From Candidatus Woesearchaeota archaeon (GTDB lineage Archaea; Nanobdellota; Nanobdellia; Pacearchaeales; GW2011-AR1): a stretch of 64,000 nt of DNA. The notes under the pieces were generated by a model. It made no database searches. It was not told the origin of the DNA and was given only the letters and a program-made list of their open reading frames with translations. Both the position numbers and the translations under genes were made by a program. Positions within the stretch are counted from its first letter, which is position 1; every line of letters starts with the position of its first letter. This document shows positions 14,245 to 61,089 of this stretch, in pieces. The stretch lies in NCBI GenBank assembly GCA_964495875.1, contig CAZBWB010000001.1, positions 215,656 through 279,655 of the forward strand. Direction: 5' to 3'.

Positions 14245-14889
14245 ATGTTTAAGAAGAAAGAATGCAGAAAATGCGGAAAGAAAATTAACGAAAAATACAG
14301 ATTTTGTCCTTATTGCGGTTCAACAGACAATAAATTTGATGATGAAAACTGGGGCATGCTTGGAAGAGATGATTTTATGAATCCTAACAATTTCCAGTTA
14401 CCTTCTGGATTTAACATGATATTTAATTCTTTAATGAAAAATTTAAGCAAACAATTGAATAATATGTATGATGAATCAAGAAAAAATTCTGACAGCAAAC
14501 TAAAAAAAGAGGGAATGAGTATAAGTATTTCAACTTCAGGAAATAATCCCCCCAAGATAAAGATAAATTCTTTCGGAAATGAAAAGGGAGAGATAAAAAA
14601 AATACCCGGACAATTCTCCAAGGAAAATGCAAAAAAATTTGTTTCACTTTCAAAAAAAGAGCCTAAAACAAACATAAGAAGATTATCTAATAGAGTGATT
14701 TATGAAATGGAAATCCCTAGTGTGAAGTCATTAAAGGATATATCTATAATAAAACTTGAAAACAGTATTGAAATAAAAGCCATTGGAAAAAACAAAGCAT
14801 ATTTCAAGCGAATACCTGTGAATCTGCCGATAATCAATTATGATTTATCAGAAGGAAAATTAATTCTTGAGTTTAATTTAAAAAATTAA
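14245..14889 (+). CDS. zinc-ribbon plus Hsp20/alpha-crystallin-like protein
   Basis: CRKC...CPYC N-terminus; C-terminal beta-sandwich pattern ending EGKLILEF. Confidence 0.7.
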   Translation: MFKKKECRKCGKKINEKYRFCPYCGSTDNKFDDENWGMLGRDDFMNPNNFQLPSGFNMIFNSLMKNLSKQLNNMYDESRKNSDSKLKKEGMSISISTSGNNPPKIKINSFGNEKGEIKKIPGQFSKENAKKFVSLSKKEPKTNIRRLSNRVIYEMEIPSVKSLKDISIIKLENSIEIKAIGKNKAYFKRIPVNLPIINYDLSEGKLILEFNLKN

Positions 14890-15039
14890 TGAGCCTGCAC
14901 GGATTTGAACCGTGGACCCCTACCTAGCTGAAGTTAAGATAATATCACCAATTTATCTCAACTATATCAGAATCACCTTCTGTCTAATTTTTTCATTAGG
15001 ACAGAATGTAGTGCTCTAACCAGGCTGAGCTACAGGCTC
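14890..15039 (-). tRNA. tRNA-Ile(GAT) with two introns (14972..15007 at 30/31, 36 nt; 14926..14964 at 37/38, 39 nt)
   Basis: Acceptor GAGCCTG/CAGGCTC, D-stem GCTC/GAGC, T-arm CACGG-TTCAAAT-CCGTG. Removing two BHB-bounded introns gives a 75-nt tRNA with CTACT-CTGATAA-GGTAG. Confidence 0.9.
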
Positions 15040-15065
15040 ATCTAAATTCAAAGAGATGAGAATAT

Positions 15066-15776
15066 TTATAAGTTTTGCGAATCTAAAAATTTTTGATATT
15101 TTATTTTATGCTTGGGATTCTGAGGATTAATTAATTTCATAAATCTATGAAACATCTCAACTCCCCTAATAGTTATAACATAACTTCTTTGACGATTAAA
15201 TTTTTCATTGTATAATTGAGAATAACTCGTAACTCTCAGATTATAATTATTAAATATTTTTATTAGTTGTTTGGCCAATTTTTCAGATATTGTTGTTATA
15301 TATAAGCGAGGATATAATTTATTATTTTTCTTTTCTAAATAAATTCCTCCGTCTGTATCAAAAATTCCACGAATAATTGCTTTTTTTAGTCTATCATTTA
15401 TTAGAAAAATTTTAGGAATTTCTATATCAAATTTTTTTCCCAAAGGTAATCCCAATTTTTGTTTAAATTTGATAATACAATCTTTCCAAATTTGGAATCC
15501 AAAAACCCTAGTAGAAGCCATATCCCTCAAATTAATCTTAACTCCATATAATTTTTCAAAAAGAGGTTTAATCCTTGTTATATAGTGTTCTTTATCTTCT
15601 TCTATATGGCCTCTAAGTTGATAAAAGCCTTTTAATTTACCGCTGTTGTTATAATAATTCATACTCCCGTCTCCAATATGCCAACCAATCTCTTCTGCAA
15701 GTTCAGGAGTTATTTTCATATCAAAATAATGCTCTAAGAGTTTATAAAGATTAATACACGAACTTTTAAAAACCAA
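15066..15776 (-). CDS. free-standing two-motif LAGLIDADG homing endonuclease (likely start ATG 15719)
   Basis: Motifs IGWHIGDGS and IRGIFDTDG, both acidic catalytic positions intact; no intein splicing residues. Confidence 0.88.
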   Translation of the reverse strand: MVFKSSCINLYKLLEHYFDMKITPELAEEIGWHIGDGSMNYYNNSGKLKGFYQLRGHIEEDKEHYITRIKPLFEKLYGVKINLRDMASTRVFGFQIWKDCIIKFKQKLGLPLGKKFDIEIPKIFLINDRLKKAIIRGIFDTDGGIYLEKKNNKLYPRLYITTISEKLAKQLIKIFNNYNLRVTSYSQLYNEKFNRQRSYVITIRGVEMFHRFMKLINPQNPKHKIKYQKFLDSQNL

Positions 15777-15793: not shown

Positions 15794-16318
15794 ATGGCAA
15801 AAGGATTTTACCATTATATGCGGGAAGCGTGGAAAAAACCAGATAAAAAAACTCTCAGAGAGAGGATGGTTGAATGGAGAAAATCAGGTATATTCACGAA
15901 AGTGGACAAGCCATTGAGATTAGACAGGGCTCGGGCACTTGGATACAAGGATAAAAAAGGATTCGTAATAATCAGAGTTAGAATAAAAAGAGGGGGGCAT
16001 AAAAGACCCCGTCCGAATAAAGGAAGGCGAAGCAAACGCCTTCATACGAGAAAAACCTTAAGTATGAATTATAAAGGAATCGCGGAGCAGAGAGTTTCAA
16101 AAAAATACACGAATCTTGAAGTTTTAAATTCTTATATTATTGGAAAAGATGGAGTAAATTATTTTTATGAAGTAATTTGTGTGGACCCAAACAAACCTGA
16201 AATAAAAAATGATAAAACAATAAACTGGATTTGCAATCCTAAAAACAGAAAAAGAGCAATGAGAGGTTTGACAAGTGCAGGTAAAAAATCAAGAGGATTG
16301 AGAAAAAAGAGGAAATAA
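15794..16318 (+). CDS. rpl15e: 50S ribosomal protein L15e
   Basis: RLDRARALGYKDKKG, NLEVLNSY and RGLTSAGKKSRGL. Confidence 0.97.
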   Translation: MAKGFYHYMREAWKKPDKKTLRERMVEWRKSGIFTKVDKPLRLDRARALGYKDKKGFVIIRVRIKRGGHKRPRPNKGRRSKRLHTRKTLSMNYKGIAEQRVSKKYTNLEVLNSYIIGKDGVNYFYEVICVDPNKPEIKNDKTINWICNPKNRKRAMRGLTSAGKKSRGLRKKRK

Positions 16319-25956: not shown

Positions 25957-26059
25957 GTCCCGGTAGCTCAGTTGGCAGAGCACATGGCTGTTAAAATTAT
26001 AATTTTTCAAGGAATTAATAGAAACCATGGTGTCAGAGGTTCGAGTCCTCTCCGGGACG
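25957..26059 (+). tRNA. tRNA-Asn(GTT) with a 30-nt intron (25994..26023) at 37/38
   Basis: GTCCCGG/CCGGGAC acceptor, CATGG-CTGTTA|A-CCATG anticodon arm, AGAGG-TTCGAGT-CCTCT T-arm. Confidence 0.93.
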
Positions 26060-41481: not shown

Positions 41482-41604
41482 CGGGCTCGCGAGGATTCGA
41501 ACCCCGATTAATCGGTTTCTCACAAACTTCGTTCGATATTATTAAACATCGCTTACGAACTCGCTCGCCGAAGCCGATTGTGCTATCCATTACACCACAA
41601 GCCC
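41482..41604 (-). tRNA. tRNA-Arg(TCG) with a 51-nt intron (41517..41567) at 37/38
   Basis: GGGCTTG/CGAGCCC acceptor, ATCGG-CTTCGG|A-CCGAT anticodon arm, CGGGG-TTCGAAT-CCTCG T-arm. Confidence 0.92.
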
Positions 41605-59027: not shown

Positions 59028-59546
59028 ATGCAAAAAATAAAGGCATATTTTGTTGGCAGGATTATAAGCACAAATTCAGCTGAAGCATATTCTCTTTACA
59101 AAAAAAGCTGTTTTGGAGAACCTGTTGGAGAAAAAATCCAGTATTCATTCTCAGAAGCCTTATTCCTCGTTGAAAAAGGAAAAATAGATATTTTCATAAA
59201 AGATAAAAAGATTATAAAAAAAGAATTATTAAAAAAACTCCAGAGATTAGATAAAAAAATTCAGATTAAATATCCTGTTTTTAAAGATTTGAGAGAAAGA
59301 GGTTATGTAATAAAAACAGCGCTGAAATTTGGAGCAGAATTCAGAGTTTATGAAAAAGGAGCAAGGCCCGGAAAAAAACATGCAAAATGGATTGTTTTCA
59401 CAGATTATGAGTCAGGAAAATTAACATGGCATGAATTCTCTGCAAAAAACAGAGTTGCCCATTCAACGAAAAAGAATCTGCTGTTAGCCATTGTCGACGA
59501 AGAAGGGGACATAAGCTATTATGAAATTAAATGGATAAGACCATAA
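59028..59546 (+). CDS. endA: tRNA-intron endonuclease (single-unit alpha type)
   Basis: EALFL, VFKDLRERGY, LKFGAEFRVY, KHAKW, RVAHSTKKNLL; 172 aa. Confidence 0.93.
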   Translation: MQKIKAYFVGRIISTNSAEAYSLYKKSCFGEPVGEKIQYSFSEALFLVEKGKIDIFIKDKKIIKKELLKKLQRLDKKIQIKYPVFKDLRERGYVIKTALKFGAEFRVYEKGARPGKKHAKWIVFTDYESGKLTWHEFSAKNRVAHSTKKNLLLAIVDEEGDISYYEIKWIRP

Positions 59547-61000: not shown

Positions 61001-61089
61001 GTCTCTGTAGCTCAGAGTCCAGAGCGCTGCTCTCATGATCATTTTTATGAGAAAGGCAGAGGTCGAGGGTTAAAATCCCTCCAGAGACA
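61001..61089 (+). tRNA. tRNA with CAT anticodon (elongator Met or Ile2) with a 16-nt intron (61038..61053)
   Basis: GTCTCTG/CAGAGAC acceptor, CTGCT-CTCATG|A-GGCAG anticodon arm, BHB helix CTCA/TGAG, T-arm GAGGG-TTAAAAT-CCCTC. Confidence 0.85.

Follow-up and report, generated by a model that had tools for sequence, protein, structure and literature searches.

A free-standing LAGLIDADG gene at the tRNA-Ile(GAU) promoter of a DPANN archaeon: a probable selfish homing endonuclease gene

Introns and inteins are the usual home of homing endonuclease genes, which phages also carry in free-standing form. The LAGLIDADG enzymes among their products make double-strand cuts at a specific target of 14–22 bp in the allele that lacks the gene. 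In archaea, I-DmoI and I-Tsp061I are single-chain LAGLIDADG endonucleases encoded in rRNA introns and PI-PfuI is an intein; in phages, F-CphI is a free-standing endonuclease encoded beside a psbA intron. The mobE/I-TevIII system is an example of trans homing of a free-standing phage endonuclease (PMC2790892), and the gene for SegB of phage T4 resides in a tRNA gene cluster (PMC13096335). Moreover, at the tRNA-Thr locus of Caldiarchaeum a mobile element is tied to allele heterogeneity, to the gain of introns and to displaced 5′ tRNA fragments (Sugahara 2012, PMC3293823). The link between a mobile element and heterogeneous tRNA alleles at the locus described below recalls this case and also the protection hypothesis of Randau and Soll, of which PMC4390854 gives a summary. 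Here, we describe an open reading frame (ORF) that ends just upstream of a tRNA-Ile(GAU) gene with two introns, in a stretch of 64,000 nt from the genome of a Candidatus Woesearchaeota archaeon, which is called the window in the following. This ORF is probably a selfish, free-standing gene for a single-chain LAGLIDADG homing endonuclease, belonging to a subfamily specialized on the tRNA-Ile(GAU) locus in DPANN archaea of the Pacearchaeota/Woesearchaeota type. Full-text searches of the literature returned no description of free-standing LAGLIDADG genes dedicated to archaeal tRNA promoters.

The locus resembles the known systems in different respects. With SegB, mobE and F-CphI it has in common that a stand-alone nuclease gene lies between conserved genes and that its product presumably cuts a nearby nuclease-free allele, the gene spreading along with its flanks by co-conversion. 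However, the phage enzymes are of the GIY-YIG or HNH type, whereas here a LAGLIDADG protein is encoded in the chromosome of a cellular archaeon by a frame that runs into the TATA box and the transcription factor B recognition element (BRE) of the tRNA gene, the neighboring introns are protein-spliced bulge-helix-bulge (BHB) introns, and the co-occurrence with introns is not obligate. The likeness to the tRNA-Thr locus of Caldiarchaeum includes the displaced 5′ tRNA fragments, which are found here in two genomes (G003, G133) and at one further locus (L031), whereas the element of Caldiarchaeum measures 1.8 kb and encodes a recombinase and the cassette described here is a 0.7-kb LAGLIDADG gene without one. 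Throughout, coordinates are positions in the window, G000 is the source genome, other G codes are genomes and L codes are loci.

The reading draws on the fold and the catalytic residues, the linkage to tRNA-Ile(GAU), the syntenic presence and absence, the overlap with the promoter, the decayed copies, and a distribution that is patchy and incongruent, all of which are observed here; we infer cleavage activity, the position of the target and a gene-conversion route. The protein matches the Pfam family LAGLIDADG_3 (PF14528) with a score of 34.3 bits (E = 2.9e-8), the cut-off being 22.5, also in a six-frame search of the genome, and contains two LAGLIDADG motifs, GWHIGDGS with the catalytic Asp17 and GIFDTDGG with the catalytic Asp123. 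Both motifs including the two aspartates are invariant across 33 aligned orthologs, the mean column identity of the alignment being 71%. More than 600 database proteins match (best E = 2e-106, far beyond chance); the best 120 of these show 66–77% identity, are nearly all 221 aa long and come from metagenome-assembled genomes (MAGs) of Pacearchaeota, Woesearchaeota and Nanoarchaeota. The AlphaFold2 (AF2) model (pLDDT 91.9, pTM 0.89) has two alpha-beta-beta-alpha-beta-beta-alpha halves, and Foldseek finds, each with a probability of 1.00, PI-PfuI (TMq 0.75), I-Tsp061I (TMt 0.73) and I-DmoI (TMt 0.77); a sequence search of the PDB with the protein gave nothing significant, so only the fold search was informative. 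The likeness to these three enzymes, for PI-PfuI to its endonuclease domain, extends to the monomeric two-domain fold, to an acidic catalytic residue after each LAGLIDADG helix and to the archaeal host, while the sequence identity is 17–21% and the gene stands free at a tRNA promoter instead of inside an rRNA or protein gene. The protein is a single-chain LAGLIDADG endonuclease of the archaeal type and probably active.

The features of the locus, listed from the nuclease gene outwards, are as follows.

15066..15719, minus strand: free-standing candidate gene for a homing endonuclease of the LAGLIDADG type, 217 aa and a stop codon (profile match, orthologs, AF2 model, Foldseek)
15720..15776, minus strand: extension of the open frame to a TTG, probably untranslated; holds the nuclease TATA box and overlaps the rpl15e promoter of the opposite strand
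15741..15748, minus strand: nuclease TATA box TTTATAAA, 21 nt 5′ of the ATG
15063..15077, minus strand: BRE/TATA element of tRNA-Ile, CAAAACTTATAAATA, which doubles as the last four codons plus stop of the nuclease gene (Q N L *)
15040..15065, minus strand: spacer of 26 nt from the stop codon and TATA box to tRNA +1
15078..15755 (approximate, about 680 bp), minus strand: DNA missing from the syntenic locus of four congeners (locus comparison)
15794..16318, plus strand: rpl15e, divergent neighbor and synteny anchor
14245..14889, plus strand: zinc-ribbon protein gene, second synteny anchor, whose stop abuts the tRNA 3′ end

The open frame extends on the minus strand from 15776 to 15066 and has 236 aa when counted from the TTG. 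It is unlikely, judged from the sequence, that this TTG serves as the start. The start conserved among the orthologs is the ATG at 15719, which yields 217 aa, and the orthologs have mostly 221 aa. The gene was taken as 15719..15066 because the orthologs begin at this ATG, several of them with a stop codon directly 5′ of the conserved leader, and because the TTG lies inside the rpl15e promoter, the motif of which is conserved in the congeners. The TTATAAA motif of the nuclease TATA box occupies -28..-21 relative to the ATG, a geometry that recurs at the tRNA, and is followed by an 18-nt leader that is conserved in 9 of 21 orthologs. From the position of the TATA box the mRNA may be leaderless or nearly so. 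Given its small size, a start and a stop codon of its own and its position outside the tRNA gene, the ORF is free-standing, and the statement of the initial annotation that an intact two-motif endonuclease gene lies here outside any intein or intron holds, with the gene being on the minus strand. Its short length with its own start and stop sets it apart from inteins and its position 5′ of tRNA +1 sets it apart from introns. A group I intron (PMC6125680) was considered as home of the ORF and ruled out, since the window contains no Rfam group I match and the ORF lies outside the tRNA.

Moreover, the gene is interlocked with the promoter of the tRNA gene. It ends 26 bp before the tRNA on the same strand, and its stop codon TAA (15068-15066) falls within CTTATAAATA (15072-15063), which occupies -33..-24 of the tRNA, so that the stop lies in the tRNA TATA box as had been proposed. 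The surrounding element agrees with the upstream consensus at -38..-24 that most tRNA genes of the source genome share, and in the nuclease-free congeners G001 and G003 the core of the tRNA-Ile promoter, CAAAACTTTTAAATA, is the same motif at the same distance as in the window, so that comparison supports the proposed TATA box. This stop-in-promoter arrangement recurs among the orthologs. Because the insertion 5′ of BRE/TATA and the stop on the TAA of the TATA box leave the promoter intact, the cost to the host would be low and tRNA-Ile(GAU) would still be expressed.

The linkage to tRNA-Ile(GAU) holds for nearly all orthologs. Orthologous loci were gathered from species-representative genomes and metagenomes and collapsed to 65 non-redundant clusters, 51 of which are informative, i.e., have at least 53% identity (range 53–77%) and enough downstream DNA. 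A tRNA-Ile(GAT) gene follows 3′ of the nuclease gene on the same strand in 50 of the 51, the lone exception (L117) being a degraded fragment, and the spacer between gene and tRNA measures 22–29 nt at 43 of the 50 loci. At other loci the frame reads through the TATA box and leaves 9 nt, in G308 (L129) the stop codon directly abuts tRNA position 1, and in G140 (L144) the frame even enters the 5′ half of tRNA-Ile, where the TGA in the anticodon loop serves as its stop. In G016 the unit of nuclease gene and tRNA keeps its internal arrangement although it is inverted with respect to rpl15e. In this genome (L003 2344-2661) a duplicate of the first 17 rpl15e codons with the promoter, fused to a hydrophobic ORF, is located between tRNA-Ile and rpl15e, suggesting that the unit of nuclease gene and tRNA took neighboring rpl15e sequence along with it.

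Comparison with close relatives reveals empty sites. All four genomes of the same genus keep the order zinc-ribbon gene, tRNA-Ile (minus), rpl15e (plus) without the nuclease gene; the promoters of rpl15e and tRNA-Ile stand back to back, the tRNA-Ile carries an intron, and no relics of the nuclease gene were found in these four empty sites. Since the syntenic locus of the congeners lacks the nuclease gene, the stretch of about 680 bp is an insertion between two back-to-back promoters. At the nuclease-free locus L038 of the congener G003, the old tRNA promoter is followed by a displaced copy of the 16 nt with which tRNA-Ile starts, and a further 113 nt, which contain a second TATA-like motif, lead to the complete tRNA; it looks as if an insertion or conversion event had left its trace at the 5′ end of the tRNA. 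Similarly, in L134 (G133), L031 and L075 a partial copy of the tRNA 5′ end of 7–8 nt (or longer) plus 34–45 nt lie between the nuclease TATA box or spacer and tRNA-Ile, and in L097 and L074 a structured leader of 73–75 nt precedes tRNA-Ile instead.

Within the order the gene is scattered. Of 401 genomes sampled evenly, 22 encode an ortholog (identity of 59% or more), and matches at E <= 1e-35 are found in 16 of 153 genera. In one genus (g24) 6 of 26 genomes are positive, and their genes are split over three or more positions in the gene tree, beside genes of other genera; overall, the tree disagrees with the genus labels. Moreover, the gene decays: the frame is broken at L029/L114/L118, L031, L117 and L119, and three nuclease-free loci (L070, L074, L075) keep relics of the 12–21 C-terminal residues exactly 5′ of the tRNA promoter. 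Distribution and decay fit the cycle of invasion, decay and loss of homing endonuclease genes.

Several points weigh against this view. The protein identity of the orthologs (60–77%) is about that of rpl15e in the same genomes (57–83%), and vertical descent with frequent loss could account for a part of the pattern. Most of the genomes are MAGs of 60–90% completeness, and thus absences are soft. The strong conservation (71% mean column identity) could come from a role that benefits the host. At the insertion, neither a target-site duplication nor a sharp boundary motif was found, and of 19 loci compared for promoter direct repeats around the gene, only 3 surpass shuffled controls. These three loci, L131 (G344), L127 (G367) and L129 (G308), have direct repeats of 19–26 nt on both sides of the gene, consisting of BRE/TATA and the last five codons, and recombination between such repeats would delete the nuclease gene cleanly. 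The window is not among the loci exceeding the controls, and a promoter duplication is not claimed for it. The motif TCACAAAACTTATAAATA upstream of the nuclease-free alleles L060, L068 and L069 was considered as a deletion footprint and rejected, as it is indistinguishable from the ordinary BRE/TATA consensus.

The conservation also bears on the idea that the protein is domesticated and has a host role at the tRNA-Ile locus, for example as a DNA-binding promoter regulator similar to WhiA or as a factor co-expressed with the tRNA. The uniform length of 221 aa across hundreds of MAG proteins, the strict positional coupling to the tRNA promoter and the label WhiA that some source annotations give to relatives would be in line with such a role. 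However, the gene is present in only about 5% of the genomes of the order and in none of the four congeners, where the tRNA promoter works without it, and decayed copies and relics exist. In addition, regulators of the WhiA type have degenerate LAGLIDADG domains devoid of catalytic residues and a C-terminal helix-turn-helix domain, whereas here both catalytic aspartates are invariant, and a Pfam scan of the 217-aa protein detected no WhiA helix-turn-helix domain. Domestication is therefore regarded as quite improbable.

The empty sites also constrain the explanation that the nuclease gene is cargo of a larger integrated virus or plasmid that used the tRNA gene as attachment site. tRNA genes are classical integration sites, and in L023/L128 (G391) and L134 (G133) the last 16–18 nt of the tRNA are repeated 80–95 nt downstream, resembling the duplicated attachment site that a small integrated element leaves behind. 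However, only about 680 bp separate two syntenic host promoters, no integrase gene is adjacent in the window and no relative was found in a viral contig collection. Furthermore, integrases usually act at the 3′ part of tRNA genes, whereas the gene sits at the 5′ end. This makes the cargo explanation very improbable. As to contigs assembled from four sediment metagenome runs, the tRNA-Ile exons are common to many organisms and the contigs break at the tRNA.

For a homing endonuclease gene the following course may be proposed. The cassette of about 680 bp, placed immediately 5′ of the tRNA BRE/TATA and with its own TATA box before the ATG, would express a nuclease that cuts nuclease-free tRNA-Ile(GAU) loci within the promoter/tRNA region or close to it. 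With the cassette-bearing copy as the template, repair would install the nuclease gene, often together with adjacent tRNA sequence (co-conversion), and once fixed the gene would decay or be deleted. In this course the introns would be ordinary BHB introns spliced by the EndA of the host, located 60–140 bp from the cassette and thereby co-convertible, with element and introns being mutually dispensable.

The tRNA-Ile(GAU) gene, which is present in a single copy in the source genome, is composed of the following parts.

14890..15039, minus strand: tRNA-Ile(GAU) gene, 150 nt (Rfam tRNA match, 46.4 bits)
15039-15008, minus strand: exon 1
15007-14972, minus strand: intron 1, 36 nt, at position 30/31
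14971-14965, minus strand: exon 2
14964-14926, minus strand: intron 2, 39 nt, at the canonical position 37/38
14925-14890, minus strand: exon 3

The limits of exons and introns were set by comparison with intron-less orthologous tRNA-Ile(GAT) genes, and the exons are those of the intron-less tRNA in G008. The spliced product has 75 nt and the anticodon GAU, and its minimum-free-energy fold contains the acceptor, D and T stems; the fold of the 150-nt precursor is not a cloverleaf and was not used for the limits. The pairings at the splice sites were read by hand from the sequence. Intron 2 forms the full hBHBh′ motif with the central helix CUGA/UCAG, two bulges of 3 nt each, UA|U and CU|A, with the splice sites following the second base, and an inner helix of 11 bp. 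Intron 1 forms a relaxed HBh′ motif with the central helix CACU/GGUG, the bulges AC|A and AU|U, an inner helix of 7 bp and a weak outer helix; its inner helix shows compensatory changes among the orthologs (UUCUG/CAGAA, UUCCG/CGGAA, UUUUG/CAAAA). The double intron, as first read from the letters alone, is genuine, and it is typical for the source genome, in which 23 of 35 tRNA genes contain insertions, several at non-canonical positions (ARAGORN in intron mode). With default settings ARAGORN found no tRNA in the window, and in intron mode it called the tRNA-Ile(GAU) gene Glu(CTC) with one intron, a wrong call that the Rfam match and the intron-less orthologs resolved. Some identity calls of this mode are wrong, the tRNA-Ile genes being named Glu and Ser. 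All four tRNA genes of the window exceed mature length (89–150 nt), the others being at 25957-26059 (+), 41482-41604 (-) and 61001-61089 (+).

The initial annotation had offered as one possibility that the protein acts as a maturase, which would aid the splicing of both introns. Group I intron maturases do exist among LAGLIDADG proteins, and bI3 and I-AniI are among the structural matches. However, the introns are of the BHB type and ORF-less, and they lie in the adjoining gene, beginning 58 and 101 nt 3′ of the nuclease stop codon. EndA is encoded in the genome, its catalytic domain (PF01974, 99 bits) being located within the window at about 59265-59519 (+) (G000:C1:274920-275174) in a 173-aa frame; this is the only PF01974 match in the 88%-complete genome, though many introns are non-canonical. 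Moreover, about half of the orthologs are found beside intron-less tRNAs, and the congeners splice their tRNA-Ile intron without the nuclease gene. The maturase role is thus discarded as extremely unlikely.

The same annotation had proposed that the nuclease and the introns spread together, and had named their co-occurrence in relatives as a check. In this form of collaborative homing the nuclease would cut intron-less tRNA-Ile(GAU) near 30/31 and 37/38, the introns would shield their carrier, and both would be spread jointly. Introns are absent from 23 of the 50 tRNA-Ile genes linked to a nuclease gene, 13 have only the canonical one, 3 only the 30/31 intron and 11 both, and the nuclease genes beside the 23 intron-less tRNAs are intact. 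Conversely, a 15-mer signature of the 30/31 intron, after removal of two matches in coding DNA (L059, L065) from 19 pattern matches and with the variant in G055 being missed, is present in 17 of the 401 genomes, and 11 of these 17 have no nuclease gene. The 30/31 intron is enriched beside the nuclease, occurring in 6–7 of 22 nuclease-positive versus 11 of 379 nuclease-negative genomes (odds ratio 13–16; Fisher p ~1e-4 to 1e-5, uncorrected for kinship), and 3 of the 11 nuclease-free alleles with this intron keep nuclease relics; both observations favor a joint spread. The canonical intron is no commoner beside the gene, with 24 of 50 compared to 6 of 9 in the few nuclease-free alleles seen.

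The exons tell further against a partnership. One mature tRNA sequence is found in three settings, intron-less and nuclease-free (G008), with two introns and nuclease-free (G325) and with two introns and the nuclease (G279 and the window), i.e., identical exons occur in all combinations of nuclease and introns; sister nuclease genes adjoin tRNAs of differing intron content; and, as far as can be judged by eye, no exon difference in the anticodon arm splits the nuclease-positive from the nuclease-negative intron-less alleles. On the other side, the window allele with both introns is unlike that of the four congeners, whose identical exons differ from it by 7 mismatches and 1 indel and whose tRNA-Ile carries a different canonical intron of 34–35 nt, and like those of genus g24, to whose alleles the window introns are homologous, with 131 of 150 positions in common with G325. 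This would be expected if the introns came with the gene.

A second isoleucine tRNA gene of the source genome bears on the target. The tRNA-Ile(UAU) gene (G000:C1:156210-156331 (+), outside the window; called Ser(TGA) by ARAGORN) has exons nearly identical to those of tRNA-Ile(GAU) outside the anticodon arm and a canonical intron of about 47 nt, and it has no nuclease gene. Because this near-identical gene is nuclease-free, recognition would have to involve the region of the anticodon arm, the promoter or spacer, or the few differing bases, and a target that includes the anticodon region holding both introns would fit as well with collaborative homing. Should the target include the anticodon arm, the site would be interrupted by both introns and the idea of a shield would revive for the intron-bearing alleles, while the intact genes beside intron-less tRNAs would need another immunity.

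Taken together, collaborative homing is unlikely. Of the proposed joint spread, a mobile homing element, the co-travel of linked introns and the enrichment of the 30/31 intron stand, while a functional partnership does not, given the 23 of 50 intron-less tRNAs and the 11 nuclease-free 30/31 alleles; the check in relatives gave a largely independent distribution, from which only the enrichment of the 30/31 intron is left (not corrected for kinship). It appears that neither the nuclease gene nor the introns need each other. The simplest reading of these comparisons would be that the gene came with most of the tRNA allele including the introns, as hitch-hiking by tight linkage (60–140 bp) and not as a partnership. 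Thus, the element goes with the tRNA gene, the introns being linked passengers at most.

The arrangement may not be limited to tRNA-Ile. In relatives, distant LAGLIDADG homologs (26–36% identity) lie just 5′ of other tRNA genes, repeatedly of Arg-CCU and also of His, Arg-UCG, Leu, Gln, Val and Glu, and at 14 of 19 such loci a tRNA starts on the same strand within about 140 nt, for which the chance expectation is about 0.4% (35 tRNAs in 632 kb). The only other free-standing LAGLIDADG gene of the source genome (locus L002, G000:C1:397451-398347 (+), outside the window) is a 298-aa frame with an N-terminal extension of about 110 aa, whose 3′ end including the TAA shares 10 nt with the start of tRNA-Gly(UCC) (398338-398408), and a tRNA-Arg(CCU) gene lies just upstream of it. 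Two further LAGLIDADG_3 domains (G000:C3:43334-43549 and C1:319863-320294) are embedded in frames of 1004 and 774 aa and presumably represent inteins.

As a niche for such elements, the promoter of one specific essential tRNA gene is new, occupied here by a LAGLIDADG gene that stands free in a cellular genome and takes its stop codon from the TATA box. These observations offer a candidate, testable route by which tRNA alleles, unusual introns and tRNA fragments may move between the tiny genomes of DPANN archaea, and a naturally occurring collection of small nucleases, each of which presumably recognizes a different tRNA locus. It is possible, though we put this forward only tentatively, that free-standing LAGLIDADG families, each specialized on a single tRNA gene and wired into its promoter, constitute a major undescribed class of mobile elements in DPANN archaea, which through repeated cutting and gene conversion would replace whole tRNA alleles, disseminating BHB introns of the non-canonical kind and leaving displaced fragments of tRNA 5′ ends behind. 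If true, this class would be a driving force behind the so far unexplained frequency of interrupted or fragmented tRNA genes in DPANN lineages.

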